Assembly: GCA_023265235.1 (NCBI GenBank) | Contig: JAHFUF010000002.1 | Location: forward strand, 1-32,393 | Reading direction: 5' to 3' | DNA length: 32,393 nt | Source of the DNA: Blastocatellia bacterium | GTDB lineage: Bacteria > Acidobacteriota > Blastocatellia > Chloracidobacteriales > JADJPF01 | Shown here: positions 1-27,300 of the stretch, piece by piece | Position numbering within the stretch: the first letter of the stretch is position 1 | How the letters are laid out: every line of letters begins with the position of its first letter | Notes under the pieces: generated by a model | The model's input: the letters and a program-made list of their open reading frames with translations, nothing else | Database searches by the model: none | Told to the model about the DNA's origin: nothing | Translations under genes and position numbers: made by a program

Positions 1-1200
1 CTTTAACAACTACAGCAGCTTGTTTAATAGCGTTATAGCTATTTAAGACTGTTTCAATTTCTCCTAGTTCGATACGAAACCCTCTAACCTTTACTTGATT
101 GTCAATTCGTCCTAGAAACTCTATATTTCCATCTGCTAAGTAACGAGCTTGATCCCCTGTTGAATAAAGCCTTTCACCCAGCTTGTTACTAAATGGATTA
201 GGGATAAACCTTTCTGCTGTAAAGTCTGGACGATTGTAATATCCTCGCGCTAATGAAATGCCTCCAATATATAGCTCTCCTATTACTCCTATAGGAACAA
301 TTTTGTAGTTTTTATCAAGAATATAAGCTTTTGTATTAGCAATAGGCTTACCAATTGGTACTCTTTGTTTTTTGGCTTCACTAATACATTGATAGTAAGT
401 AGCATCTATAGTTGTTTCTGTTGGGCCATAAAGATTATAAAGCTCTGCTTTAGAAGACTTAAAGAAAAGCTCTTTTAATTGTGGACTTAAGGCTTCACCA
501 CCACAAAAAATTCGTTTTAGCTTGTTATTTGCAAACTCTTTTTCTTCAACAATTAGGCTTAAAAGCGATGGAACAAACTGAACTGTAGTAATGTTATTAC
601 TGCTAATAGTTTCTAATAAGTATTTTATATCCGAATTAAAGTCAGGTTTGGTTATTACTAGCTTTGCTCCAACAATTAGTGGAAGATAAAACTCACACAC
701 AGAAGCATCAAAACTAATAGGGGTTCTTTGTAATGTTGTATCTTCTGATGTTATAGAAAATCTGTCTTTCATCCAAATCATATGATTAGCTATAGCTTCT
801 TGGGTAATCATCACCCCTTTAGGCAAACCTGTAGACCCTGATGTATGAATTATATAGGCTATTTCCTGACCACTAATATTAAGTTTAGGGTTGTGTTTTG
901 CTGATGTGTTAAATATTGAGTCTTCTTTATCAAGATAGAGCTTAGCTACTTTTAGCTCAGAGGTTTGCTCTTTTAGCTCAGAATGAGTTATCAAAAGCTG
1001 TAGGTTTAAGTCATTAATAATAAAGTTTAGTCTATCTATTGGGTAATAAAGACTTAACGGTACATAAGCAACACCAACTTTTAGACTTGCTATCATAGCA
1101 ACAACTATTTCCAAACAGTTTTGCATATAAATGCCTACTACAGATTGTCTTTCTATTTGCGCTTTAAGATAGTTTGCAAGTTGATTAGCTTTCTCATTTA
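1..1200 (-). repeat. Tandem module duplication, distal A-domain copy (period 3162 nt)
   Basis: Aligns with 3163..4362 at a constant offset of 3162 nt (1054 codons). There is an 84-nt perfect match at 386-469 = 3548-3631. The translated A domains are nearly identical from NQLANYLK through GRIDxQVKxRGFRIELGEIE. The copy is truncated by the window edge. Confidence 0.85.
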
Positions 1201-4200
1201 ACTCTTGATAGGTAAGTACTTTGTTTTCAAAACTTACAGCTATAGATTCAGGAGTAAGTGCTACTTGTTTTTCAAATAGTTGATAAACAAACACATCTTT
1301 TGGATAGTTAACATCTGTTTGGTTAAACCCTTCTAATAGAATACTTTGCTCTTTATCATTTAATATTGGTAAGGTAGAAACCTTGTGACTAGGGTTATTT
1401 ATTAGTGACTCAAGTAAAACTTGATAATTTTCAAGCATCCTTGTTATGGTGTCATCTTCAAATAAACTAGTATTGTATGTTAATGATACTTCTAGTCCAT
1501 TGGATGTTTGAGTCATAGAACATGTTAAATCAAACTTTTCAATATTTGTCTCAATATCAAAGTAAGATAGTTCTAAATCATTGAGATTAAATGTTGATAA
1601 GTTATCTTCTTGGAGTAAAAACATAATTTGAAATATAGGAGAATAGCTTAAGCTTCTCTCAGGCTGGAGTAACTCAACTAGTTTTTCAAAAGGAATTTCT
1701 TGATGTGTATAAGCTTCTAAACAAGTTTCTCTTACTTTTTCTAACAACTCTAGAAATGAATCATTAGCCGAAAAACTAGTTCTTAATATCAGCGTATTAA
1801 GAAAAAAACCTATTAAACCTTCTGTTTCAGGATGGTTCCTTCCTGCTATTGGGCTGCCTACTATTATGTCTAGCTCTCCGCTATAACGATATAGCAAAAG
1901 CTTAAAGCTAGCTAACATTGTCATAAACAAAGTTGTGCTTGCTTTTTTACTTAAAGAAACTACCTTTTGACTTAACTCTTTTGAAACAATAGTTTGCTGT
2001 CGTCTGCCATGATGTGTTTGGTTTGTAGGTCTAGGTTTATCTATTGGTAAACTATGCAGAGGTTTAATACCTGAAAGCTTTTTCTCCCAATACTTAAATT
2101 CTTTTTCTAAAACCTCTCCTGATAACCTATCACGTTGCCATAAAGCATAGTCTACATATTGTATTGGTAATGGGTCAAAGCTAGGGGGTTGACCTGAAAT
2201 AAAACCTTGATAAAAGGAGCATAATTCTTGTAAAAAAATATTTATTGACCAAGCGTCTGAAACTATATGATGTGTGCTAAGTAATAAAATAGCAGACTCT
2301 TTTGACAATAAAAATAACATCACTCTTATTAAAGGCAATTTAGACAGGTCAAAAGCTTTACTGGCAACCTGTGTGATTAATTCTACACTTTTTTGTTTAC
2401 TTTCTACTTCTGATAAATGGGTTAAGTCTATTGTTTCTAGAGCAATATAAAAATCATCTTCTATTATTTGCACTGGTTGTTCTAAAAGAGTGCTAAACCT
2501 AGTACGTAGGCTTTTGTGTCTCTTTATAATTTCATTAACACTTTTTTCTAGGGCTGTTATATTTATAGTACCTGTTATTAATCTTGTTGTAGAGGTGTTA
2601 TAAACAGGACTATCAGGTTCAAACTCAGCCAAAAACCATAACCTTTGTTGGGCAAATGATAAAGGTAGCGATTTGGTTCTATCCACCACTATAGAGCTAA
2701 ATTCGTTAGCAGACCCAGAATAAAGCATTACTTTTTCTGCTAGGCTAGCCACAGTAGCCGAATCAAAAATATCTCGAATAGTCATTTTTATATTAAAGTT
2801 TTTTTGTATTCTAAAAATAATTTGTAAAGCTAAAAGCGAGTGACCTCCTAAAGCAAAAAAATTGTCATAAACTCCTATTTTTTCTCGTTTTAGTATTTCA
2901 GACCAAATTTTAACAACCTTTTCTTCTATGGTATTTCGAGGAGCAACAAAACCTTCTGATACTTCTATATCAGGGGTTGATAGTGCATTTCGGTCTATTT
3001 TCCCGTTTGGCATTAATGGAAAAAAGGGTAAAAAAACATAGCCTGTAGGGATCATATAACTTGGTAACTTAACTCTTAGTATCTGTTGAACTTCTTGTAA
3101 TGTCATCTCTATTGACTTTGTAACCAAGTAAGCAACTAAACCTTTATCCCCTTTACTATTTTCTTTAGCAAGGACTACAGCGTCTTTTATAGTTGGGATT
3201 TCTAAAAGTGCTGATTCAATTTCTCCCAACTCTATCCTAAATCCTCTTATTTTTACTTGACTGTCAATTCGTCCTAGAAACTCAATATTTCCATCAGTTA
3301 AGTAGCGAGCTAAGTCTCCTGTTGAATACAGCCTTTCACCTAGTTTGTCACCAAAAGGATTAGGGATAAACCTTTCTGCTGTAAAGTCTGGACGGTTGTA
3401 ATACCCTCGTGCTAATGCAACACCTCCAATAAACAACTCTCCTACTACTCCAATAGGCACAATATTTAAGTGTTTATCTAAAATATAAGTCTGTAAACCA
3501 TCAATAGGCTTACCAATTAGTACTGGCTGTTTTTTAGCATCATTAACACATTGATAGTAAGTAGCATCTATAGTTGTTTCTGTTGGGCCATAAAGATTAT
3601 AAAGCTCTGCTTTAGAAGACTTAAAGAAAAGTTCTCTTAATTGTAAGCTCAATGCTTCACCACCACAAAAAACTCGTTTTAGCTTGCTATCAGTAAACTC
3701 TTTTTCTTCAACAATTAGGCTTAAAAGTGATGGGACAAACTGAACTGTAGTGATGTTATAGCTGCTAATAGTTTCTAGTAAATATTTTATATCAGCATTA
3801 AGGTCAGGTTTGGTTAAAACTAGCCTTGCTCCAACAATTAGCGGAAGATAAAACTCCCATACAGAAGCATCAAAACTAATGGATGTTCTTTGTAATGTTG
3901 TATCTTCTGATGTTATAGAAAATCTATCTTTCATCCAAACCATATGATTAGTTATAGCTTCTTGGGTAATCATTACTCCTTTAGGCAAACCTGTAGACCC
4001 TGACGTGTGAATGATATAGGCTATTTCCTGACCACTAATATTAATTTTGGGGTTGTGTTTTGCTGATGTATTAAATATTGAGTTTTCTTTATCAAGATAG
4101 AGCTTAGCTACTTTTAGCTCAGAGACTTGCTCTTTTAGCTCAGAATGAGTTATCAAAAGCTGTAAGTTTAAGTCATTAATAATAAAATTTAATCTATCTA

Positions 4201-7200
4201 TTGGATAATAAAGACTTAGTGGGACATAAGCAATACCTGACTTTAGACTTGCTATCATAGCAACAACTATTTCCAAACAGCTTTGCATATAAATGCCTAC
4301 TATAGCTTGTCGTTCGATTTTCACTTTAAGATAGTTTGCAAGTTGATTAGCACGCTCGTTAAGTTGTTGATAAGTAAGCGACTTTCCTTCTAAGATCACA
4401 GCTATATTATTAGGTGTTTGTAAGGCTTGTTCTTGCAAAAGTTCAGGTAAAAATTTTTCTACACAATAACCCTTTTGCCAACTATTAAACCCCACTATTT
4501 GATTATATTCACTTTTATCTAAAAATGAGATTTGAGAAATAGGAGTTTTTCTATCAACTAATATTTTCTCTAACAAAGTTTGATAGTGTTTTGACATTCT
4601 TAAAATAGTGTTTTGATCAAAAAGGTCAGAATTATATTCCCACACTAAAGAAATCTGTTTTACATTAGAAGAAGAATTTGCTCCAATAGATTGTTCAAAA
4701 TGAGGGATAACAATAGCGGTAAGATCAAACTTAGAAGAGCCATTACTTAATGCTTCTGTTAGGTTTATGTCTACTTCAGGGAACTCTAGTTTTGGAATTT
4801 GCGCGTCATGGAAACTAAAAAACACTTGGCATATTGGAGAATAGCTTAAACTACGTGCTGGATTTACTGCATCAACAACCCTATCAAAAGGAATGTCTTG
4901 GTTTTCATAAGCTGCTAGTGTTGTGTGTTTTATTTTTTCTAATAAATCGTCAAACCTTTCTTCTTCTGACAAGATACTTCTTAGGACTATATTATTAACA
5001 AACATGCCTATAATATTTTCTACTTCTTGTAAGCGTCGATTAGCAATTGTTGAGCCTAAAGCTATATCTTTTTGACCACTATAACGATAAAGCAGGATTG
5101 TAAAAGCGGCAGACATCACCATAAATAATGTAGTTTCTTTCTCCCTGCTTAAATTACGTAGCGATTGACAAAGCTCTTCTGATAAGTGCTGTCTAAAGCT
5201 ACTACCTTGAAAAGTTTGCAGACTAGGGCGCACACGATCATAAGGAAGTGTTAGTAATGGAGGGCAACCTGTTAAATTGTTTTTCCAGTAAGCAGATTGA
5301 GCCTTGGCAGCTTGAGTTTCTAACCATTGATGTTGCCAAGCAGCAAAATCAACAAACTGTATTTTAAGCTCTTCTAATTTTGGATTCTGGCCTAAGTAGT
5401 AAGCTTGATAAAGAGTTACTAGCTCTTTAAGAAATACATTAAAAGACCAACCATCATGAACTATATGATGTTCACTATGAATTAAAACATGCTCTCTATG
5501 GCTTAAACGTATTATCAGCCAACGAATCAAATATAACTCTGATATATCAAACTCTTTAGAAATTTGATCATTAATTAATTTTTCTAACTTAAGTGTTTTT
5601 TCTGCTTCTGGTATTTCGCTTAAATTAATAACAGGAACACTATTAAAGTGATGTGGATGAATAATTTGTACTGGTTCTTCACCAACTATACTAAATGTAG
5701 TACGAAATATTTCATGTCTATTTATAATCTCATTAAAACACTTTTCTAGAATGTTAATGTTTAAGTTACCTTTTAACTCTAACTTAGAATGAAAAGTATA
5801 GGCTAAAGGGTTTGATGCTAGTTGTTGAATAAACCAAACTCTTTTTTGGGAAAACGATAGAGGTAAGGGCTGATGGCGAGGGATAGGAGTAATTTTTTCT
5901 ACAACTGACAAAGATTTTGATTTTGATAGGTCGAGTTTTTTGGCAAGCTGAGCTAAGGTTTCTGAGCTAAAAAAAGTACTTAAAGATAGTTCTACTTGAA
6001 AGTGTTCACGAATTCGACTAACTACCCTAGTTGCTAGTAAAGAATGTCCCCCTAGTTCAAAAAAATTATCAGACCTGCTTACATTTCTTACAGCTAAAAC
6101 TGTTTCCCAAATATTGGCTAATATTTTTTCTTCTTCTGTAGCAGGTGGGTCATAATCTCTAGCTTCACTTAATTCTTGGCTTAGAGCTAAAAGTGCTTTT
6201 CTATCTACTTTTTCATTTGCCGTTAGAGGAAACTCATCTATTTTAATAAATCGGCTAGGCACCATATGCTCTGGTAATTGTTTGCCCAAAAACTCTTTTA
6301 TCTCGTTTACAATAAAACCTACATTTTCTTTAACCCCTAGATATGCAATTAATTGTTTGTCTCCTAAAGGTGTCTCGCCTACTAATACAACACTTTGTTT
6401 AACTACAGGGTGTGTGTCCAAAACAGTTTCTATTTCACCCAATTCTATACGATAGCCTCTAACTTTTACTTGATTGTCTTTACGTCCAAAAAATTCAATA
6501 TTCCCATCTGGTAGATAACTAGCCAAATCTCCAACTTTATAAAGCCTTGCACCTGGTTTAGAGCTAAAAGGATTAGGAAGAAACCTTTCTGCTGTTAAGT
6601 CTGCTTTGGCTAAATATCCTCTTGCTAACCCGTCTCCTGATGTATAGAGTTCTCCCATAACTCCTATTGGTACAATATTAAAGTCTTCATCTACTATATA
6701 AATCTCTGTATTAGAAACAGGACATCCAATAGAAACTGTTCTACCTACTTGGCTTACATCTGTCATAACATAGCAGGAAGTAAAAGTAGTGTTCTCTGTT
6801 GGCCCATAGCCGTTAATTAGTGTTATTCCTGGTACTTGCTCTAGTAACTTCTTTACCTGTTTTACTCCTAGTACATCGCCTCCTGAGAATAGATATTTTA
6901 ACCCTCTAAAACAATCTATTTGTTCTTCTACCATTTGGTGAAATATGGCTGATATTAGCCAAAGAACTGTTATTTTGTATTCTTTTATTTTTCTTCCTAG
7001 ATCATTTAACGAAGGTTTGTAAGCAGGAAACACTACGAGTTTTGCACCATTGAGTAGGCTACCCCATATCTCAAAAGTAGAGACATCAAAAGAAATAGGT
7101 GTAAATTGTAAAAATACGTCCTGTGATTGGATTTTTATATAGTTAGTTTCTTTGATTAACCGAACTATTGATTGGTGACAAACAATCACTCCTTTAGGAT

Positions 7201-7594
7201 TACCCGTTGAACCTGACGTATATATAACATACGCCATATTTTCTGGTCTTACTAAAACGCTAAAATTACTGGTAGACTCTTTTTCTATTTCTTCCCAATC
7301 TTGGTCTAAACAAATAGTATTATTGCTTATAGCTTCTATTTTATCTCTTAACCTTTTTTGCGTTAAAATAACCTCTGCCTTAGCGTCTTTAATTAAGTAT
7401 TCTAGTCTTTTTTCAGGGTAAGCAGTTTCTAAAGGTAAGTATCCTGCACCTGCTTTTATAATAGCTAATACAGCAATTATCATTTCTAAGGAACGCTCTA
7501 AGCAAACTCCTACTAAGGTTTCTTCTTTTATTCCTTGTTTTCTTAAATAACTTGCTAATTGATTTGCTTTCTCGTTTAGCTCTTTATAGGTCAA
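1..7594 (-). CDS. Non-ribosomal peptide synthetase, 3' end runs off the left window edge: A-T-C-A-T-C-A(partial)
   Basis: Absent from the supplied ORF track because it has no stop inside the window. Hand translation of the minus strand (codon first bases at positions equal to 1 mod 3) is stop-free from 7684 to base 1. Motifs read directly, in order: first A domain YTSGSTG 7202-7222, NGYGPTE, GRKDNQVKVRGYRIELGEIE, NEKVDRK ~6200-6220. Carrier FELGGHS (Ser 6041-6043). C domain HHIVHDGWS 5444-5470. Second A domain HTSGSTG 3989-4009 with 10-residue code DAWQFGLIDK (Gln-type). Carrier ALGGHS (Ser 2837-2839). C domain HHIVSDAWS 2246-2272. Third A domain (code so far DACQFGLID) readable through GRIDNQVKVRGFRIELGEIE at ~60-120. 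Coordinate 7594 is the first canonical in-frame start (TTG) after the last upstream stop. The true start is uncertain. Confidence 0.9.
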   Translation of the reverse strand, partial: MTYKELNEKANQLASYLRKQGIKEETLVGVCLERSLEMIIAVLAIIKAGAGYLPLETAYPEKRLEYLIKDAKAEVILTQKRLRDKIEAISNNTICLDQDWEEIEKESTSNFSVLVRPENMAYVIYTSGSTGNPKGVIVCHQSIVRLIKETNYIKIQSQDVFLQFTPISFDVSTFEIWGSLLNGAKLVVFPAYKPSLNDLGRKIKEYKITVLWLISAIFHQMVEEQIDCFRGLKYLFSGGDVLGVKQVKKLLEQVPGITLINGYGPTENTTFTSCYVMTDVSQVGRTVSIGCPVSNTEIYIVDEDFNIVPIGVMGELYTSGDGLARGYLAKADLTAERFLPNPFSSKPGARLYKVGDLASYLPDGNIEFFGRKDNQVKVRGYRIELGEIETVLDTHPVVKQSVVLVGETPLGDKQLIAYLGVKENVGFIVNEIKEFLGKQLPEHMVPSRFIKIDEFPLTANEKVDRKALLALSQELSEARDYDPPATEEEKILANIWETVLAVRNVSRSDNFFELGGHSLLATRVVSRIREHFQVELSLSTFFSSETLAQLAKKLDLSKSKSLSVVEKITPIPRHQPLPLSFSQKRVWFIQQLASNPLAYTFHSKLELKGNLNINILEKCFNEIINRHEIFRTTFSIVGEEPVQIIHPHHFNSVPVINLSEIPEAEKTLKLEKLINDQISKEFDISELYLIRWLIIRLSHREHVLIHSEHHIVHDGWSFNVFLKELVTLYQAYYLGQNPKLEELKIQFVDFAAWQHQWLETQAAKAQSAYWKNNLTGCPPLLTLPYDRVRPSLQTFQGSSFRQHLSEELCQSLRNLSREKETTLFMVMSAAFTILLYRYSGQKDIALGSTIANRRLQEVENIIGMFVNNIVLRSILSEEERFDDLLEKIKHTTLAAYENQDIPFDRVVDAVNPARSLSYSPICQVFFSFHDAQIPKLEFPEVDINLTEALSNGSSKFDLTAIVIPHFEQSIGANSSSNVKQISLVWEYNSDLFDQNTILRMSKHYQTLLEKILVDRKTPISQISFLDKSEYNQIVGFNSWQKGYCVEKFLPELLQEQALQTPNNIAVILEGKSLTYQQLNERANQLANYLKVKIERQAIVGIYMQSCLEIVVAMIASLKSGIAYVPLSLYYPIDRLNFIINDLNLQLLITHSELKEQVSELKVAKLYLDKENSIFNTSAKHNPKINISGQEIAYIIHTSGSTGLPKGVMITQEAITNHMVWMKDRFSITSEDTTLQRTSISFDASVWEFYLPLIVGARLVLTKPDLNADIKYLLETISSYNITTVQFVPSLLSLIVEEKEFTDSKLKRVFCGGEALSLQLRELFFKSSKAELYNLYGPTETTIDATYYQCVNDAKKQPVLIGKPIDGLQTYILDKHLNIVPIGVVGELFIGGVALARGYYNRPDFTAERFIPNPFGDKLGERLYSTGDLARYLTDGNIEFLGRIDSQVKIRGFRIELGEIESALLEIPTIKDAVVLAKENSKGDKGLVAYLVTKSIEMTLQEVQQILRVKLPSYMIPTGYVFLPFFPLMPNGKIDRNALSTPDIEVSEGFVAPRNTIEEKVVKIWSEILKREKIGVYDNFFALGGHSLLALQIIFRIQKNFNIKMTIRDIFDSATVASLAEKVMLYSGSANEFSSIVVDRTKSLPLSFAQQRLWFLAEFEPDSPVYNTSTTRLITGTINITALEKSVNEIIKRHKSLRTRFSTLLEQPVQIIEDDFYIALETIDLTHLSEVESKQKSVELITQVASKAFDLSKLPLIRVMLFLLSKESAILLLSTHHIVSDAWSINIFLQELCSFYQGFISGQPPSFDPLPIQYVDYALWQRDRLSGEVLEKEFKYWEKKLSGIKPLHSLPIDKPRPTNQTHHGRRQQTIVSKELSQKVVSLSKKASTTLFMTMLASFKLLLYRYSGELDIIVGSPIAGRNHPETEGLIGFFLNTLILRTSFSANDSFLELLEKVRETCLEAYTHQEIPFEKLVELLQPERSLSYSPIFQIMFLLQEDNLSTFNLNDLELSYFDIETNIEKFDLTCSMTQTSNGLEVSLTYNTSLFEDDTITRMLENYQVLLESLINNPSHKVSTLPILNDKEQSILLEGFNQTDVNYPKDVFVYQLFEKQVALTPESIAVSFENKVLTYQELNEKANQLANYLKAQIERQSVVGIYMQNCLEIVVAMIASLKVGVAYVPLSLYYPIDRLNFIINDLNLQLLITHSELKEQTSELKVAKLYLDKEDSIFNTSAKHNPKLNISGQEIAYIIHTSGSTGLPKGVMITQEAIANHMIWMKDRFSITSEDTTLQRTPISFDASVCEFYLPLIVGAKLVITKPDFNSDIKYLLETISSNNITTVQFVPSLLSLIVEEKEFANNKLKRIFCGGEALSPQLKELFFKSSKAELYNLYGPTETTIDATYYQCISEAKKQRVPIGKPIANTKAYILDKNYKIVPIGVIGELYIGGISLARGYYNRPDFTAERFIPNPFSNKLGERLYSTGDQARYLADGNIEFLGRIDNQVKVRGFRIELGEIETVLNSYNAIKQAAVVVK
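3163..4362 (-). repeat. Tandem module duplication, proximal A-domain copy (period 3162 nt)
   Basis: Same evidence as 1..1200. Similarity decays upstream of about 4350, at the N-terminal part of the A domain and the C-A linker. Confidence 0.85.
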
Positions 7595-7712
7595 TTGTCG
7601 AGATTCAAATTCAATTGCTATAACTTCTGGAGTTGTTCTTACTACTTCTTCAAATAGTTCTACAATAGTCTTATCCTTTGGATAATTAGTAGCAGTATTA
7701 TTAATTTGCAAT
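6164..7712 (-). repeat. Starter A-domain cassette, copy 1 (direct repeat of 14723..16281)
   Basis: Colinear with the 5' end of the neighbouring NRPS gene at an offset of 8559-8569 nt. There is a 140-nt perfect match at 6633-6772 = 15192-15331, and 2 mismatches in 58 nt at 7383-7440 versus 15951-16008. Similarity ends exactly after the codons for SQELSE (6164 / 14723). Confidence 0.9.
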
Positions 7713-7756
7713 GGCAAGTCTTGCTTATCACAATGAGCTAGTTTTTTCTCTAACAT
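7595..7756 (-). other. Frame-broken 5' leader of the left NRPS gene (possible frameshift, pseudogenisation or sequencing error)
   Basis: ATG 7754-7756 has an AAAGG motif at 7762-7766 and is in the same frame as the gene body. That frame contains TGA 7727-7729 and TAA at 7724-7726, 7700-7702, 7697-7699 and 7685-7687. Segment 7681-7740 reads LAHCDKQDLPLQINNTATNY only in another frame, where it matches the paralogue (LSLQVNNTATNY). Left copy TATCAAAG (7676-7683) versus paralogue TATCCAAAG (16244-16252) shows a 1-nt deletion. Confidence 0.6.
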
Positions 7757-7876
7757 AAATACCTTTAAGTTTTAGAATTTATTAGAATGCTTAAAACTGT
7801 AAATTTTAGCTAAGGAGAGTCTTTAAAACCATATTAACCCACTAGGAAAAACATAGTAGGGGCGAACAGTTCACCC

Positions 7877-16611: not shown

Positions 16612-19600
16612 ATGACAGATTTTTCACATTTATCATTAACAGAGAAAAGAGAACTTCTAGCAAAATTATTACAAAAACCCTTAAAGGACAAAATATTTCC
16701 TTTGTCCTTTGCCCAACAACGTCTTTGGTTTTTGGATAAATTAGAGCCAATGAATTCTGCTTATAATATTTCTACAGGCTTTCTTTTAGAAGGAAACTTA
16801 AATGTAGAATACCTAGAACAAAGTATTAATGAAATTATTAAGAGACACGAAAGCCTAAGAACTAGTTTTGAAACAATTTCTGGCCAACCTAAACAAATTA
16901 TTAAAGAAGCGCGAAACCTGTCTTTAACAAAAGTGGATTTAGGACAAACCCCGTTAAATCAACAACAAGATGAAATAGCAGCAATTGCCTTAAAAGATGC
17001 TAAAGAACCTTTTGAACTCTCAGAGTGGCCATTGCTAAAAGTAAAACTACTTTATTTCTCAGAAAACAAACATGTACTACTCCTAGTAATTCATCACATT
17101 ATTAGCGACAATTGGTCTATTTCATTATTTCTACAAGAGTTACAAGAGTTTTATCAAGCTTTTTATTATAAAAGAGACCCTAAAATAAAACCTTTAAGAA
17201 TCCATTATGGCGATTTTTCGGTTTGGCAAAGAGAATATTTACAAGGAGAGGTTTTAGAAAAAGAATTAAGTTACTGGAAACAAAAACTAAGTAAAAACCT
17301 ACCTGTATTAAACTTAGCCTTAGATCACCCAAGGCCACCATTACAAAGCTACAAAGGGGCTAATATATTTATAGAAGTCCCAAAAGAAATCTTTGAGAAG
17401 CTAAAAAATATTTGCACCCAGCAACAAGTTACTTTATTTATCTTATTACTAACCGCTTTTAGTACACTGCTTTACAAATACACAGGACAAACAGATTTAC
17501 TTATAGGATCTCCTGTTGCTAATCGTAACCGTAGTGAATTTGAAGACTTAATTGGGCTACTAATTAATATGTTAGTCCTAAGAATAGACCTATCAGGAGA
17601 ACCAACTTTTCTTGAAATGCTCAAGCGTGTACGTGAAATTGTACTAGATGCTTGTGCTCACCAAGAAGTTCCTGTAGAAAAATTGGCTGAAGAAATACAA
17701 CCCCGACGAGATTTAAGCACCCCATTTGTACAAGCAAGTTTTTCTCTCAATGAAGGTGTGTCAAACTTGGTGTTACCAGAACTGGCAGTCACTAGATTAG
17801 TCATTCATAACAACACAGCAAAAGTAGACTTAAACCTAGAATTAAAAGAAGCTAATGGAGTGTTAACAGGAATTTTTAACTATAACTCTGATTTATTTGA
17901 TGAAAGTACGGTTAAACAAATCTCGTTAGACTTTGAAAACCTATTAACTTTTGTAACAAATAATCCAGAACAACATATTAATTTATTACCTAATTTAATA
18001 TTGCCCGCAGACAAAAAAAATTATGTTAATAATGAAGAAAAAACAAACTTAAGTTCTAATCAATTACTAGTTTGGTTAGGACAAAAATTACATCCTAATG
18101 TCCCGCTTTATAATATTCCAATCTTTGCCATTATTTCTGGTCAAATAGACATAGACAATTTACGACAAGCCTTTCAAATCTTGGTTAACTCTGCTGACAT
18201 GCTTAGAACAGTAATTGAAGAGGTTCAAGGAGTAGCACAACAAAAAGTGTTGTCAGAATTAAATTACTTACTTGATTATTTTGATTTTTCAAACCTTACT
18301 TCAGAGTCGCAACTACAAGATTGGATGGTGGAAAAGTCACAATATATTTTTAATAACAACGAAGTCCTCTTTTACTCTGCCCTAGTGAAACTGCCTAATA
18401 ATAGCCTAGCATGGTATCTCAATATGCATCATTTGATTGGAGATGGTTGGTCAGGGCCATTAATTTTTGAGCGTGTATCAGAGATTTACCAACAATTGGT
18501 ATCTGATAGCTTTGAGACTTTTTCACTACCTCAATTTCAAGATTATTTGTTAAAAGAAAAACAAGAAAAAGCTTCTAAACGTTATTTATCTGCTCTGAAT
18601 TATTGGCAGAAAAAGCTATCAATAACTGCTGAACCAATTGTTTTTTATGGGCAAAAAAATGAAAAAATATCTACAAAAATTAAGCGTATTAAATATAACA
18701 TTAATACTGAAAATACTAATAAGTTAAAAGCTATTACTACAGAAGAAAATATCTCGATTCTTAATATTTTTACCGGGCTGCTTTTTACTTATTTGTACCG
18801 TATTAGCGGACACTCGTTAATTTCTATTGGCGTACCTTTTCATAACCGCCGTAGTAAAGCTTTTAAGCATACCATTGGGCCGTTTATGGAAGTATTGCCA
18901 TTACAAGTTAGTATTTCTAAGGAAGAAACTTTTGCTTCACTAATTAAAAAAGTAAAATTAGAGACTTTTGAAATACTTCGCCATGATATTTCTGTAAATA
19001 ATCCTATTAATCGTAAACATTACGATGTTTTTCTTAATTATCATAGTGAGGGACAATACAAGTTCAATTTTAATAACAAGGCTGTAGATGTTGGTTGGGT
19101 AGCAACTGGTTATGAAACCTACAATTTAGCCTTACAGGTTCATGATTTTGGGCTACTAGGGAATTTTGTTATAGATTTTGACTTCAACACAGAGCTTTTT
19201 GATCAGGAGCAACAAACTTGGGTAATAAATCATTTTACTCAACTGCTAAATATTTATTTAACTCAAGGTAGCCAAACAAGTCTAAAAAATACTAGCTTAC
19301 TTCTGCCAGAAGAACGAGAGCATATCTTATTAGGTTTTAATCAAAGTCAGCAAAATGTTCCTTTTGAACAAAACTTTGCACAGCTTTTTACCCAACAAGT
19401 AGCTAAGAATAGAGAAAAAATTGCTGCTGTTTATGGCAAAGAACAACTAACGTATCAAGAGCTAAACTTTCGTGCTAATAAATGTGCTCAGCAGCTTATA
19501 GACAAAGGAATTGGCCTAGACAACATAGTAGGATTGTTTGCACGACGGGGCTTAGAGCTACTTATTTCTATTTTAGCTGTGTTTAAGGCTGGTGCAGCCT

Positions 19601-21300
19601 ATTTACCGCTAGATCCAAATTATCCAGCCAAAAGACTTAGCTATATCCTTAATCATAGTGAAACAAAAACCATTCTAGTTACTAGGGAGATGAAAACTAG
19701 TTTAATTACTAGTCTACAAGAATTACCTAAAACAGAATGGCCAGAAATTATTGAAATAGAAGAATTATTAGAACAAACCATTGATGTTAAAGAAATAACC
19801 TCTCCTGTCCAACCGGATAATCTTGCTTATGTAATATACACTTCTGGTTCAACAGGGCTGCCAAAAGGTGCAATGGTAGCTAGTAAAGGGATGATAAACC
19901 ACTTATATGCTAAAGTTTTTGACTTAAAACTTACAGAAAAAGATTATATCGCACAAACTGCTTCACAATGTTTTGACATCTCTGTTTGGCAATTTCTCTC
20001 AGCATTAATTGTAGGTGGCAAAGTAGAAATTATTGACGATGAAATAGTGCTAGATCCTTTAAGACTACTTAACTTAGTGGCTAGCCAGCAAATATCTATC
20101 CTAGAAGTAGTTCCATCACTACTTAGCGCGATGTTAAATAGTATTACTGTTCAAAAACCAAATCTATCTCTTTTAAGATGGCTGGTTGTAACTGGAGAAG
20201 CCTTTGCTCCAGAACTCTGTCGTCAATGGATGTTAGACTATCCAGAAGTTCTAGTAATGAATGCTTATGGCCCAACAGAGTGTTCTGATGATGTTACTCA
20301 TTATTTAATTACTTCTACATTGCCTAAAGAAATGACTTATATGCCAATAGGCTGTCCAGTAATTAATATGCAGCTTTATATACTAGACCAGCATTTATCT
20401 CCTGTACCTATTGGAGTTGTAGGAGAAATCTATGTAGGAGGAATTGGAGTAGGACGAGGTTACTTAAAAGATCCTGAAAAAACTGCCAATGTCTTTTTGC
20501 CTAATCCTTTTGCAATGTCATCAGGAGAAAGACTTTATAAAACAGGTGACCTAGGAAGATGGTTAATAAACGGCGAAATAGAGTTTTTAGGCAGAATAGA
20601 CCATCAAATAAAAATACGCGGTTTCCGTATAGAGCTAGGAGAAATAGAATCTGTATTAAGAGAATATCCTGAAGTTAAAGACGTTGTTGTAGTAGCCAAA
20701 TCTTTAGATACTACCGAAAACACCGAAAACACTAATAGCTTAAAAACTAGCCAAGATAACGTAATTGTTGCTTATTTAGTGGCAAGAAGCTCACAATTCC
20801 TTATTAGCAGCTTACGTGAGTTTATGCAGGAAAAATTGCCTGACTATATGGTGCCAGGGTTGTTTATGTTCTTAGACACTTTACCTCTTAACCCTAATGG
20901 TAAAGTAGATCGCGCTCTACTTCCTGAACCAAAAAGGGATCGTGAGCAAACACAAAACCATTATATCGCCCCTAGCACAGAGGTTGAGCAACAGATTGCT
21001 AATGTTTGGGGAAGGTTATTAAAAATAGATAAAATAGGGGTTAATGACAATTTTTTTGACCTAGGAGGACATTCACTTTTACTTGTCCAGGTGCAAAACA
21101 AACTAAAAGAGCTTGTAGGAAAAGAAATACCTTTAGTGGAAATGTTTCGCCATCCTACAGTAAGTTCTCTAGCTAATTATTTTACTCAGCTAACTCAGAC
21201 TCTTAAGCAAGTTGACCAGGAAGATTTTTCAGAAGTTAAAGAACGTGCAAGAAAACGTACAACTACAAAACGCCAAAGACCGCAGGGGGCTTATGAATAA
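16612..21300 (+). CDS. Non-ribosomal peptide synthetase, 1562 aa: C-C-A-T
   Basis: ORF track entry. Domain order:
- N-terminal helix LSLTEKRELLAKLLQK.
- C1, aa 27-455: LSFAQQRLWFL, HHIISDNWS at nt 17092-17118.
- C2, aa 478-895: EntF/DhbF-like N-terminus LSSNQLLVWLGQKLHPNVPLYN, HHLIGDGWS at nt 18427-18453.
- A, aa 920-1435: YTSGSTGLPKG, NAYGPTECSDD, YKTGD, NGKVDR. Code DIWEVTADDK.
- T: DLGGHS Ser1488, nt 21073-21075.
- Basic tail KERARKRTTTKRQRP. Confidence 0.95.
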   Translation: MTDFSHLSLTEKRELLAKLLQKPLKDKIFPLSFAQQRLWFLDKLEPMNSAYNISTGFLLEGNLNVEYLEQSINEIIKRHESLRTSFETISGQPKQIIKEARNLSLTKVDLGQTPLNQQQDEIAAIALKDAKEPFELSEWPLLKVKLLYFSENKHVLLLVIHHIISDNWSISLFLQELQEFYQAFYYKRDPKIKPLRIHYGDFSVWQREYLQGEVLEKELSYWKQKLSKNLPVLNLALDHPRPPLQSYKGANIFIEVPKEIFEKLKNICTQQQVTLFILLLTAFSTLLYKYTGQTDLLIGSPVANRNRSEFEDLIGLLINMLVLRIDLSGEPTFLEMLKRVREIVLDACAHQEVPVEKLAEEIQPRRDLSTPFVQASFSLNEGVSNLVLPELAVTRLVIHNNTAKVDLNLELKEANGVLTGIFNYNSDLFDESTVKQISLDFENLLTFVTNNPEQHINLLPNLILPADKKNYVNNEEKTNLSSNQLLVWLGQKLHPNVPLYNIPIFAIISGQIDIDNLRQAFQILVNSADMLRTVIEEVQGVAQQKVLSELNYLLDYFDFSNLTSESQLQDWMVEKSQYIFNNNEVLFYSALVKLPNNSLAWYLNMHHLIGDGWSGPLIFERVSEIYQQLVSDSFETFSLPQFQDYLLKEKQEKASKRYLSALNYWQKKLSITAEPIVFYGQKNEKISTKIKRIKYNINTENTNKLKAITTEENISILNIFTGLLFTYLYRISGHSLISIGVPFHNRRSKAFKHTIGPFMEVLPLQVSISKEETFASLIKKVKLETFEILRHDISVNNPINRKHYDVFLNYHSEGQYKFNFNNKAVDVGWVATGYETYNLALQVHDFGLLGNFVIDFDFNTELFDQEQQTWVINHFTQLLNIYLTQGSQTSLKNTSLLLPEEREHILLGFNQSQQNVPFEQNFAQLFTQQVAKNREKIAAVYGKEQLTYQELNFRANKCAQQLIDKGIGLDNIVGLFARRGLELLISILAVFKAGAAYLPLDPNYPAKRLSYILNHSETKTILVTREMKTSLITSLQELPKTEWPEIIEIEELLEQTIDVKEITSPVQPDNLAYVIYTSGSTGLPKGAMVASKGMINHLYAKVFDLKLTEKDYIAQTASQCFDISVWQFLSALIVGGKVEIIDDEIVLDPLRLLNLVASQQISILEVVPSLLSAMLNSITVQKPNLSLLRWLVVTGEAFAPELCRQWMLDYPEVLVMNAYGPTECSDDVTHYLITSTLPKEMTYMPIGCPVINMQLYILDQHLSPVPIGVVGEIYVGGIGVGRGYLKDPEKTANVFLPNPFAMSSGERLYKTGDLGRWLINGEIEFLGRIDHQIKIRGFRIELGEIESVLREYPEVKDVVVVAKSLDTTENTENTNSLKTSQDNVIVAYLVARSSQFLISSLREFMQEKLPDYMVPGLFMFLDTLPLNPNGKVDRALLPEPKRDREQTQNHYIAPSTEVEQQIANVWGRLLKIDKIGVNDNFFDLGGHSLLLVQVQNKLKELVGKEIPLVEMFRHPTVSSLANYFTQLTQTLKQVDQEDFSEVKERARKRTTTKRQRPQGAYE

Positions 21301-24300
21301 CGAAAATGACACTCTAGACACAGCAATTGCAATTATAGGGATGGCTTGCCGCTTTCCTGAAGCAAACAATATTGCTGAGTTATGGCAAAACCTAAAAAAT
21401 GGTATTGAGTCAATTAAGTTTTTTTCTAAAGAAGAATTGTTAGCCGTTGGTATTGAAGAAACTTTACTTGATAATCCTAACTATATTAGAGCCAAAGCAT
21501 TTTTGTCACACATAGACAAATTTGATGCCTCCTTTTTTGGCTATAGCCCAAAAGAAGCTGAGTTAATTGACCCACAACAAAGAATTTTCTTAGAACTTGC
21601 TTGGCAAGCTCTAGAAATAGCTGGTTATGATAGTGAACAATACCCTGGCCAAATAGGAGTTTATGCTGGAATCGGCTTAAATACTTACTTATTAAATAAT
21701 CTAATTAATAACACAGATATATTTACTTCATCTCGTAGACATCAAGCGGTTTTAGGTAATGACAAAGATTTTCTCCCTACAAGGGTTTCATATAAATTAA
21801 ACCTAACTGGGCCAAGTATGACTGTACAAACAGCCTGTTCAACTTCCCTAGTAGCAACCTGTTTAGCCTGCCAAAGCTTGTTAGACTACCACTCAGATAT
21901 AGCACTAGCCGGAGGAGTAAGTGTTACTATTTGGCAAAAGAAAGGCTATTTTCATGAAGAAGGAGGAATTTATTCTCGTGATGGGCATTGTCGTGTTTTT
22001 GATGCTCAATCTACAGGCACAGCAGCAGGAGAAGGAGCAGGAATTGTAGTATTAAAACGCTTAAAAGAAGCCCTAGCAGATGGAGACAGTATTTATGCAG
22101 TAATCAAAGGGTTCGCACTTAATAATGATGGCTCAGAAAAAATTGGCTATACCGCCCCAAGTGTTGATGGTCAGGCTAATGTAATCGCCGAGGCTCAAGC
22201 AGTAGCAAATGTTACTCCAAAAGAAATTACTTACGTAGAGACTCATGGCACAGGGACAATTTTAGGCGACCCAATAGAAATTGCAGCATTAACAAAAGCT
22301 TTTCGCGGTAGTACAGATAAAACCTGTGCTATTGGCTCAATAAAAAGTAATTTTGGTCATACAGACACTGCCGCAGGCGTAGCAGGTTTGATAAAAACTG
22401 CCTTGGCGTTACAAAACAAGCAAATTCCTCCTACTCTACATTTTGAAACCCCCAACCCTAATATTGATTTCACCAATAACCCTTTTTATGTAAACAAAAC
22501 ACTTATACCTTGGGAAACCTCTATGTTACCTCGACGTGCTGGTGTTAGTTCTTTTGGTATCGGTGGTACTAACGCACATTTAGTACTAGAAGAAGCACCA
22601 GAAAGCATAAATAGCCCAACTAAAAAACCTTGGCAATTACTAGTGCTATCAGCTAAAACAGAAAATGCTTTGGAAATGGCTAGTAAAAACTTAGCAGAAT
22701 ATTTAATTGCAAACCCTGAAAGCAACTTAGCAGATATTGCTTATACTTTACAAATTGGACGACGAGCCTTTTCACACCGGCGAATAATAGCTAGTAATAG
22801 CACTAGTCATGCTATTGAAACACTTAAAGTTAATAACCCTCAACAGGTCTTTACTAGCCATAACATAGATAGTAAACCGCCTGTAGTGTTTATGTTTTCT
22901 GGACAAGGTTCACAATATATTGGAATGGCTAAAGAGCTTTATCAGAACGAACCTATTTTCCAAAAATATCTAGACAAATGTTTTGCAATACTTAAAACCA
23001 ACCTAGATATGGACTTACATAGTATAATTTACCCTAATGAACAGAATAAATTGGCCTCAGCAATCGAACTAGACCGTATTTTGTTTACATTACCTGCCTT
23101 ATTTTCTATAGAGTATTCCCTAGCCAGGTTTTGGATAGAATTAGGAGTAAAGCCTTGGGCAATGATAGGTTACAGCCAAGGAGAATATATAGCGGCTTGT
23201 CTTTCAGGAGTATTTTCCTTAGAAGACGCATTAGCTTTGGTTTTAGCCAGAGGTAGGTTAATGGAAACTTTGCCTAAAGGAGCTATGTTAAGTGTAGCAA
23301 TGTCAGAAACAGAACTACTTAATATACTCCCTTCTGAACTATCCTTAGCAATTGTTAGCTCTGATAACCTATCCATAGCGTCAGGAGATATTCAAGCAAT
23401 AGAAGACTTTTTTAATTTTCTTACTAATAAAGAAATAGAGTGTAAAAAACTAAACGTCCACCATGCTTATCATTCGCATATGGCTAAGCCTATTTTGGAG
23501 CATTTTACCCAAGAGGTAAAAAAAATCAGCCTACATCCTCCACAAATACCTTATTTATCAAATGTTACAGGGACTTGGATTACTAAAGAGCAGGCTACTG
23601 ATCCTAGTTACTGGTCTAAACACTTACGTCAAACTGTTAGATTTTCTGATGGCTTAATTGAGCTATTTAAACAAAAAGAGTTGTTACTCTTAGAAGTTGG
23701 CCCTGGAAAAAGATTAACAGCTTTAACACAACTGCATATTAACAAAAAGCCTCAACATACAGTGGTAGCTTCTTTACCTCCTCCAAGTTTTACCGAATCT
23801 GAACACGCTTTTTTTCTTAATTCACTAGGAAAGCTCTGGTTATCAGGAGTAAAAATTAGCTGGTTAAAATATTATGGTGATGAACAAAGACACCGAATTA
23901 ACTTACCTACATACCCATTTGAGCGCGACAGTTATTGGATAAATGCACCAAATCAAACTAATAATTCAAAGGCTAATAGTTTAGTTGATGACTTAGCACC
24001 TAAACCAAACATAAGTGATTGGTTTTATTTTCCTAGTTGGAAACAAATGCCTTATTTGCTGACAAATAGCGAAGATGTCGAATTTAGTCCTAAAAATTAC
24101 TTGGTTTTTGCAAATGAAACGCCTCTTTGTGAGAGGGTTTTAACCGAGCTAAACTTTTTAGGTCATCAAGTAACTTCAGTAAAACTAGGAGAGGGGTTTT
24201 CCAAACTCCTAGATAATTACTATGTTAATTTTTCTCAAAATAGCTATGAGCAATTGTTTCCATCTCTCGCTAGTAACAATAAATCGCCTGATATTATTAT

Positions 24301-27300
24301 CCATTTTTGGTTATCAGACTCTTCAGACTCTAAAACTATTGACGTTTTATCAGAGATTAATTTTGACGAAATCCAACAATTAGGATACGTTAGTTTACTT
24401 AATACTGTAAAAGCTTTATCAAGAGAGGGTTTTACTCACAAGATTAAGTTATTTTTTATCTCAAACAATATATTTTCAGTAACTGGACAAGAAACGCTTT
24501 GTCCAGCAAAAGCAACCACTGTAGGGCTTTGTCGGGTTATTTCTCAAGAAAACCCTAATATTTATGCTAGCAATATTGACATATCTGGAGACTTGCCACT
24601 AGAAACCCTGGCCAAAGAAATAATTTTTTCTACAACCTCCCCAACTAAAGAATTAACTATCGCATATCGTGGACGTTACCGTTGGTTACCGGACTACCAG
24701 CCATTTTTGTTAAACACAAAAATGCTACCATTAAAAGAAAATGGAGTTTATTTAATTACTGGTGGTTTAGGGGGTTATGGGCTAGAAATTGCTGAATATT
24801 TAGCTCATAAAGTAAAAGCAAAATTAGCCCTAGTAAACCGTAGTAGCTTTCCACAAAAAAGTGAATGGCAAAGCTATCTAAATAATCTAGATAGCTCAAA
24901 CAATCCAAACAATGAGGTTAGCCAGAAAATTAAACGGCTACAAGCTTTAGAATCTTTAGGCGCGACCATATTAACCTTTTCTGCTGATGTTACTAATTTT
25001 CACGAAATGCAGTCAGTAGTTGAGCAAGTAACAAATAAATTAGGCAACATCAATGGTGTATTACATTTAGCAGGTTTAGTAGGTGGGGGGTTAATTGAAA
25101 TCAAAGACTGGTCAGATATGGCCAATGTTATTAATACCAAAGCAAAAGGGACAATAACATTAGCAAAGTTATTTCTAGCACAAAAATTAGACTTTTTTAT
25201 TTTATTCTCTAGCATTAACGCTATTTTAAGCAGGTATGGTCAATCAGATTACTGTGGTGCCAACGCCTTCCTAGACGCTTTTGCTTATTATTTCAACCAA
25301 TTTACCCTAACAATATCAATTAATTGGGAAACTTGGCAAGATACTGGTATGGTCGCAGTTAAACAACCTATCAATGAAAGAGCTAATTTATGGAAAGAGG
25401 AAATGGAGACTCTGACTAGCACAATGTCTGTTAAAGAAGGAGTCAAAGCATTTGAAAGAGCCTTAACAGTTCAAGTACCTCAAGTAATAGTGTCTAGTAG
25501 AAACTTTTCTTTATTATGGAAATATTACCAGGAAAAATTAGCAAAGATAGAATTACAAAATACTCCAACAACTATAACCCAAACCTATTCCCGTCCAATA
25601 TTAGCTACTAAGTATGTTGAGGCTAGCAATGATACAGAACAAAAATTAGTGGAAATCTGGCAAGAAGCTTTAGGTTTTACACCGATAGGTATTTATGATA
25701 ATTTTTTTGACTTAGGTGGTGATTCAGTTATAGCTATTCAACTAGCAGCAAAAGCCAATAAAAAAGGGTTGAAAATTAGCTCAAAACAATTTTTTGAACA
25801 CCAAACCATCGCTGATTTAGCTAATAATATTACCCATAGCCAAACCAAAATAGACCAAGAGGTTGTTACAGGTTTTGTCCCATTAACCCCAATTCAAAAA
25901 TGGTTTCTTAATCAAAATTACCATAATCTTAATCATTTTAACCAAGCAGTAAGGCTAAAGGCTAGTCAACCAATAGATTCAGCTTTACTAGGAAAAGCCC
26001 TTCAAATCCTAGTTACACATCACGATGCGTTACGGATGAGATTTTTTCAAGAAAATGGTGAATGGCAGCAATTTAACGCTGAAGTAGACAATAATGTTGA
26101 TTTTTTAACCACCATTGATTTAATTAACTTATCAGACTCAGAGCAATCGAAAGCCATTGAATCAGCAGCAAACAAAGCTCAAAAAAGCCTAGATATAAGA
26201 CAAGGAAAGGTTTTCTCTGCCCTACTTTTTTCCTTAAGTAAACTAGACTATCAGTTACTAATAATTGCTCATCATTTAGTCATTGATATAATTTCTTGGC
26301 CAATATTATTAGAAGATTTAGAAACAGCTTACCAACAACTTAGTCAATCCTCACCTGTTTTATTACCTAATAAAACTACTTCATTTAAGAATTATGCTGA
26401 AAAATTATTAGTCTATTTAGAGTCAATAACAGAAGAACAAAACTATTGGTTAACCCTTGCTTGGGAACGTTTTTCTCCATTATTTGTTGATTATCCAGAT
26501 CAAGATAATAATTTTTCTAATCTAGAACAAATAAACCTATCCTTTAGTGTTGAAGAAACTAATAGTTTAATAAAAGAAATAACCAAAACTTACAAAATAC
26601 GAGTCCAAGATCTATTAATAGCAATTTTGGCAGAAAGCTTTTCTCGTTGGGCTGATATTTCTACTGTGGCTATTGATGTAGAAATGCATGGTAGAGAAGA
26701 AATTGCTCCAGAAATAGACCTATCACGCACAGTAGGTTGGTTTACCAGTGTTTTCCCACTTGTAATAGATTTTAGTAAAGCTAATACATTAAATGAGCGT
26801 GTTAGTTATGTAAAATGGTACATCAATAACATTCCAGCTAACAATGGTATTGGTTATGGTTTACTCCATTTGTCTTCAGACAAAGAGCTACTAAAAAAGC
26901 TACTGCTACTGCCAACCCCTGAAATTAATTTTTTATATTTAGGACAAACTAGAAATACTAATGACCAAGAAAAGCTCTTTTTTACTACGTCAGACTCTTG
27001 TGGAGAAACTATTGATAGAAAGCAAAAACGCAGATATTTATTTGAGATAGTTGGGAAAGTTATAGAAAATAAATTACAAATAAATGTATTTTATAATCAA
27101 AGGCAATACAAAAAATCAACAATTGATTTACTGTCTCAAAGCTTAACTAATGTAGTTAAAGAATTAATTTTTAATGCTCCAAAAAATATTTTATTAGAAA
27201 ATAATAATAATGAAATAGAGCAAAATAAAATAGAATTTTTAGATATTTCACAGCAAAAACAAATCGCTACACAGCTAGGTTATCAGCCTACAGAGGTTTA

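Follow-up and report, generated by a model that had tools for sequence, protein, structure and literature searches.

A probable trimodular nonribosomal peptide synthetase gene at the edge of a megasynthase locus from a Blastocatellia bacterium

The stretch of DNA analysed here, called the window below, is 32,393 nucleotides long and covers positions 1 to 32,393 of the forward strand of contig JAHFUF010000002.1 in the assembly GCA_023265235.1, which comes from a Blastocatellia bacterium of the Acidobacteriota. By domain searches, the window holds four megasynth(et)ase genes, the number that an initial annotation, made from the letters alone, had given. Two nonribosomal peptide synthetase (NRPS) genes, g1 and g2, lie on the minus strand, and the NRPS gene g3 and the mixed polyketide synthase (PKS)/NRPS gene g4 follow on the plus strand (Table 1). 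The main subject is g1, which fills the left end of the window and runs off its edge.

On translation, the g1 frame runs along the minus strand from 7756 to 2 as 2585 codons with zero stops; the other five frames across the same 7756 bases contain 138–311 stops each, and their longest open run is 99 codons. From the base composition (GC content 33.5%), the stop probability is 0.079 per codon, or about one stop in every 13 codons. The probability that 2585 codons stay free of stops by chance is therefore about 1e-92, which excludes a chance origin of the frame. The open reading frame (ORF) list shows no entry left of 7877, as had been remarked before, and none appears when the threshold is lowered to at least 60 aa. 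By its own description, the ORF lister leaves out ORFs that overrun a source end, and g1 is missing from the list because its stop codon falls outside the window, which is the explanation that the initial annotation had offered. Genes at the window edge are thus dropped silently from such a list, and a fully coding quarter of the window appeared to be empty.

The g1 frame is open from 7771 and is preceded by an in-frame TAA (7774-7772), which fixes the start codon. The first ATG lies at 7756 (7754..7756, minus strand), with an AAGG at 7762-7765, 6–9 nt upstream. Two further records agree with this start. The gene call in an independent ENA assembly begins 121 nt past the end of the upstream gene, i.e. 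at 7756, and the g1 orthologue KAF0250108.1 (auto-named 'lgrC'), from the metagenome-assembled genome (MAG) GCA_009773835.1, contig WSNY01000045.1 (L004), begins with the same MLEKKLAHCDKQ as g1. The earlier description of one uninterrupted frame of about 2,560 codons starting at 7684 was right in that no in-frame stop occurs from 7756 to 2, and its start and length have to be corrected, position 7684 being an internal Tyr codon of g1.

The end of g1 was approached through the same two relatives. The ENA record (ERZ27296333, a 20.5-kb contig) carries an identical g2, then 121 nt and then a gene called at 2786 aa, so that 201 codons of g1 are missing from the window, which holds the first 93% of the gene. 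In the orthologue, the last 198 aa, past the point that corresponds to the window end, consist of the remainder of AMP-binding_C, one PP-binding domain and a tail of about 50 aa; neither a thioesterase nor a further module is present in these 198 aa. By comparison, the missing part of g1 would comprise A9, A10, a third carrier and a tail of about 50 residues, with the stop codon about 0.6 kb left of the window. The left boundary therefore lies outside the window, as initially annotated, but the "remaining modules" that were also expected there shrink to one PP-binding domain and what is left of AMP-binding_C. On the ENA contig, the 2786-aa gene is followed by a convergent one whose product has at least 714 aa.

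Pfam searches of g1 match AMP-binding (PF00501) in three stretches (E 4e-261), AMP-binding_C in two stretches, Condensation (PF00668) in two stretches (E 7e-208) and PP-binding (PF00550) in two stretches (E 2e-31). The domain borders were set by phmmer, with the domains of g1 itself searched against the window's four large proteins. In g1 the domains follow as A-T-C-A-T-C-A-(T) (A, adenylation; T, carrier; C, condensation), and the window edge falls inside the third A domain. Pfam, the phmmer mapping and the motifs all bear out the order that had been read by eye as far as the A8 motif of the third A domain, the three families named beforehand for an HMM check were all matched, and the motif coordinates given at that time are exact; a third HTSGSTG (827-847) was absent from that list. 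The catalytic motifs of g1 are whole: the core motifs of ANL-superfamily adenylation domains, A3 (xTSGSTGxPKG), A8 (GRxDxQVKxRGxRIELGEIE) and A10 (NGK/NEK), are present, GGHS occurs in both T domains, and the condensation motif is HHxxxDG in C1 and HHxxxDA in C2. The active site of C2 thus has an Ala where HHxxxDG has a Gly, and its HHxxSD form is one that we take to be linked with LCL-type domains. A2 and A3 are 83% identical, while C1 and C2 share 41%. Among solved structures, the best matches of C1 are Txo1/Txo2 (E 3e-74 to 5e-73), and C domains of TycC are found as well. An HH[IL]xxxxGD second His motif was not seen in C1 by eye.

Table 1 Features of the window (aa, position in the encoded protein)
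Feature	Coordinates	Strand	Evidence or remarks
g1, 5' 2585 codons of trimodular NRPS gene	2..7756	-	open frame, Pfam A/C/T matches, ENA gene call, dN/dS
g1 leader	34 aa before A1	-	
g1 A1, adenylation, aa 35-540	6137..7654	-	YTSGSTG 7202-7222; A8 6464-6487; A10 NEKVDR 6200-6217; code DVFWFGGTFK
g1 T1, carrier, aa 541-615	5912..6136	-	GGHSL 6038-6052 (aa 569); phosphopantetheine Ser 6041-6043
g1 C1, condensation, aa 627-1091	4484..5878	-	active site HHIVHDGWS 5444-5470
g1 A2, adenylation, aa 1109-1601	2954..4432	-	HTSGSTG 3989-4009; A8 3251-3274; A10 NGKIDR 2990-3007; code DAWQFGLIDK
g1 T2, carrier, aa 1611-1678	2723..2926	-	GGHSL 2834-2848 (aa 1637); Ser 2837-2839
g1 C2, condensation, aa 1691-2145	1322..2686	-	active site HHIVSDAWS 2246-2272
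g1 A3, adenylation, aa 2161-2585, edge-cut just past A8	2..1276	-	HTSGSTG 827-847; A8 GRIDNQVK 89-112; code DACQFGLIDK
Direct repeat, 3162-nt spacing	second copy 1..1220, first ~3163-4382	-	92-96% identity around A3 core motif
g2, upstream paralogous NRPS gene, 2815 aa	7877..16324	-	120 nt upstream of g1
g2 first A (aa 35-538)	16222-14711	-	code DALWLGGTFK, Val-like; no carrier of its own
g2 second A (aa 560-1040)	14647-13205	-	directly after first A
g2 end: C (aa 2214-2654), 36-aa A9/A10 remnant, T (aa 2699-2765)	9685-8030	-	A core gone
g3, NRPS, C-C-A-T	16612-21300	+	phmmer with g1 domains
g4, PKS/NRPS, 2564 aa	21293-28987	+	KS-AT-KR-T(GGDS)-E-like(HHLVIDxxSW)-C-T

Specificity codes were extracted by alignment to the GrsA PheA segment, and the control returned the expected DAWTIAAICK for the reference. 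The code of A2 is identical at 10 of 10 positions to the published Gln code DAWQFGLIDK (Rausch 2005, as quoted in PMC8313283). The code of A1 sits in the Val/Ala group xxxGGTFK and is one residue off the Ala code DVFWLGGTFK, which is listed in PMC12283262. From these codes, Gln is predicted as the substrate of both A2 and A3, and a small aliphatic residue (Ala/Val-like) as that of A1. Taken together, g1 has every defining feature of a modular (type I) NRPS subunit that can be tested in a sequence.

Between g1 and its orthologue, dN/dS (the ratio of nonsynonymous to synonymous substitution) is 0.14 over 1300 codons, at a dS of 0.16, which indicates purifying selection on g1. Among the paralogous A domains, A2 against A3 gives a dN/dS of 0.27, and A1 of g1 against the first A domain of g2 one of 0.20. 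These values, together with the intact motifs, argue for g1 as a working enzyme and not a relic. The gene is likely co-transcribed with g2, because the 120 nt between the two genes contain no terminator-like site.

In standard NRPS logic, each A domain would adenylate one amino acid and load it onto the phosphopantetheine arm of the next T domain. A1 would put a small aliphatic residue on T1, and A2 and A3 would put Gln on T2 and T3; C1 and C2 would then make two peptide bonds, leaving an X-Gln-Gln thioester on T3. The subunit would start a chain, since g1 opens with A-T and lacks a C domain at its N-terminus. Its end, a T domain plus tail with neither thioesterase nor reductase, suggests that the tripeptide would pass in trans to the C domain of another protein. 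From the above, g1 is very probably an intact, selected three-module NRPS gene that encodes an initiating subunit and passes X-Gln-Gln on in trans.

Several points weigh against this conclusion. The substrate calls come from the codes alone, and two of the three codes deviate: that of A3 matches the Gln code at 9 of 10 positions, with a Cys for the Trp at position 239, and that of A1 has no exact match to any published code. The subtype of C1 (LCL, DCL or dual E/C) is left undivided by its solved-structure matches, which are generic and non-diagnostic. The missing 201 codons were derived from the 93%-identical orthologue and a gene-length record and not read directly, so the third T domain of g1 is known from the orthologue alone, and the convergent gene of at least 714 aa left of g1 is known by its length only. 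As to the hand-off, g3 is the only window protein with an N-terminal C domain and thus the only candidate acceptor there, which is circumstantial. None of the four megasynthase genes in the window contains a release domain (thioesterase or reductase), and chain release must be encoded elsewhere; the membership of the subunit in the NRPS class is unaffected. No MbtH-like or phosphopantetheinyl transferase gene turned up in the window, where no search was aimed at them. Finally, in the related assembly GCA_964536575.1 (L003), the region upstream of the g3-g4 pair carries an AraC gene, two aldo-keto reductase genes and an RRXRR gene instead of g2 and g1.

The upstream gene g2 is a paralogue of g1 as judged by homology along both proteins. 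The order of its domains is A-A-T-C-A-T-C-[36-aa A9/A10 remnant]-T-tail. Its first A domain is 83% identical to A1 of g1, the first C domains of the two proteins are 51% identical and the second ones 52%, and g2 and the g1 orthologue share 61% identity in their T-plus-tail ends. At the DNA level, direct repeats link g1 and g2 at offsets of about 7000 and 8560 nt. Unlike g1, g2 has an extra A domain inserted after the first one, and the A core of its last module has been deleted, leaving a remnant that is homologous to the A-domain end of the orthologue. An A-less C-T and a carrier-less A domain, the sequence pattern of a trans-loaded module, thus occur together in g2, and its first A domain may be a cis-fused A domain that loads a distant carrier. 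A domains acting in trans are known from HMWP2/HMWP1 (yersiniabactin) and SyrB1/SyrE (syringomycin). Our literature search for precedents of tandem-A or A-less NRPSs returned nothing relevant.

This architecture allows another reading of g1, as the collinear continuation of g2. The last C-T of g2 and A1 of g1 would then form a split module, and the two proteins together a longer joint peptide; in detail, A1 of g1, or its N-terminal copy in g2, would load the terminal carrier of g2 in trans. The gene order fits, because g2 ends in C-[remnant]-T without an A core, g1 opens with an A domain 120 nt downstream, and the gap is free of terminator-like sites. The purifying selection on the carrier-less N-terminal A domain of g2 (the dN/dS of 0.20 above) and the known trans-serving A domains count on the same side. 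However, A1 of g1 directly precedes a T domain of its own, and no C domain stands between the last T of g2 and the first T of g1, so that there is no catalyst for a transfer of the chain from g2 to g1. The homologous N-termini and the 61%-identical T-plus-tail ends give the two proteins the look of parallel paralogues and not of consecutive partners, and in the related MAG the homology starts 185 nt before the g2 end, with an RRXRR/HNH gene upstream. We regard the continuation as unlikely, and prefer g1 as an initiating subunit of its own.

The orthologue differs from g1 by one whole module. KAF0250108.1 is 89% identical to g1 in protein sequence over 1674 aa and has an identical N-terminus, and the DNA of L004 is 93% identical to window positions 8062-3211 and 92.5% identical to positions 1244-1. 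Both genes share A1-T-C1 and a Gln-type A domain, and both have the g2 3' end and the intergenic region upstream, whereas the orthologue consists of only two modules (A-T-C-A-T; 1727 aa vs 2786 aa). The unit that is absent from it measures exactly 3162 nt and runs from the 3' part of A2 through T2 and C2 into the 5' part of A3. The one Gln-type A domain of the orthologue (L004:4078-5415) is chimeric, A2-like on the 5' side and A3-like on the 3' side, and the switch falls in a core of 92-96% identity around HTSGSTG, the A3 core motif. The repeat spaced by 3162 nt in g1 (Table 1) is the putative recombination substrate for this one-module difference. The change may have been either a deletion or an insertion.

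Gene clusters are known to gain and lose modules through internal recombination; nodularin and microcystin are an example (review PMC13500794). The present case is similar in that two near-orthologues stand one whole module apart and the junction lies inside homologous A domains. It differs in that the two states occur in uncultured relatives whose DNA is about 93% identical.

Of g2, L004 matches only the last 185 nt, which lie next to the 3' end of an RRXRR+HNH gene (L004:1-542). An RRXRR+HNH gene is also found at L003:109-531. Genes of this kind, 444 aa at full length, are located at rearrangement points in both related assemblies, and we read them as IscB-like.

The rearranged neighbourhood is also what could make g1 a decaying or non-functional remnant, whose frame is open merely through recent origin. 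The orthologue is one module short, one A core is gone from g2 and one A domain has been added to it, the relative has an RRXRR/HNH gene right next to what remains of g2, L003 has g4 in two pieces, and no release domain occurs in the window. Such decay is nevertheless very improbable, given that 2585 codons are free of stops at 33% GC, all catalytic motifs are intact, and the dN/dS of 0.14 is held over 1300 codons at a dS of 0.16, which is substantial divergence under constraint. That the frame is due to chance or to an assembly artefact, such as a repeat wrongly collapsed or duplicated so as to fake the third module, is hardly credible: A2 and A3, with 83% identity overall and 92-96% in the core, are of the type that misleads assemblers and the related MAG has one copy, but about 17% of residues differ between the copies, their flanks are distinct (C1 before A2, the 41%-identical C2 before A3), the second assembly at ENA gives 2786 aa, which fits three modules, and the chance figure is about 1e-92. 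Overall, the reading of g1 as an intact gene under selection is retained.

On the other side of g2, the first C domain of g3 resembles an ordinary elongation C domain, and the second is divergent, sharing only 22-29% identity with the others. Among the best solved relatives of this second C domain are 7c1k/7c1h, surfactin synthetase and the first C domain of CDA synthetase; we take these to be starter-type domains. The A code of g3, DIWEVTADDK, matched no published code in the literature searched, and its acidic pocket suggests a basic, possibly diamino, acid as the substrate.

The start of g4 is probably the ATG at 21293 and not the TTG at 21212 that is listed; the ATG gives an 8-nt overlap with the g3 stop and yields the 2564-aa product that is called in other assemblies. 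An epimerase-like domain follows the PKS module of g4, and the closing C-T has no A domain. The plus strand downstream of g4 encodes a CcbP-type calcium-binding protein of 225 aa (29011-29688) and an 838-aa protein (29861-32377) whose matches, to beta-propeller/lactonase and cytochrome c, are weak; beyond these, the ENA contig carries a 557-aa outer-membrane efflux protein (OEP) and then a 1302-aa protein of unknown family. Over the whole window, Rfam gave no RNA family match.

All four megasynthase genes have a GC3 of 0.19-0.23, with no compositional break between g1-g2 and g3-g4. The g3-g4 pair recurs in GCA_964536575.1 (L003:4711-17177 vs window 16565-28986) at 93-95% DNA identity, and g4 is split there into 2237 + 335 aa near window positions 28004-28011. 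Physically, g1-g4 form one locus. They may belong to one pathway; in L003, g3-g4 stand without g2 and g1 upstream. One scheme that would unite the four genes takes g1 and g2 as parallel tripeptide initiators that both feed the C-C of g3. The product would be a branched, two-armed peptide extended by g4, and the roaming A domain at the head of g2 would serve the A-less C-T of g2 and/or g4. We consider this scheme improbable; if true, assembly at this locus would be convergent, and a cis-fused A domain would be dedicated to the roaming task.

Among known NRPSs, g1 shares its domain families, core motifs and module order with canonical linear multimodular enzymes such as Txo1/Txo2 (teixobactin) and TycC (tyrocidine), while it differs from these in having no N-terminal C domain and no terminal thioesterase. 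The orthologue aside, its best full-length relatives, from cyanobacteria, myxobacteria, Acidobacteria and Ktedonobacteria, are only 36-49% identical, so that no characterised pathway can be assigned, and no close relative was found in the scanned GTDB representative genomes and JGI metagenomes. Because the nearest non-orthologous relatives, at 42-49%, stay below 50% identity, the product of this orphan NRPS/PKS locus of a low-GC, Gram-negative bacterium is probably undescribed.

In summary, any account of the locus needs g1 included. The phenomenon of module gain and loss is already known, and a pair of genes that differ by one module, with the junction mapped in an A domain, is a clean natural case of the route by recombination that NRPS engineering follows. 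The enzyme class of g1 is well known and g1 an ordinary representative of it, though an orphan; the oddities of its neighbours and the module polymorphism are leads and not yet results.

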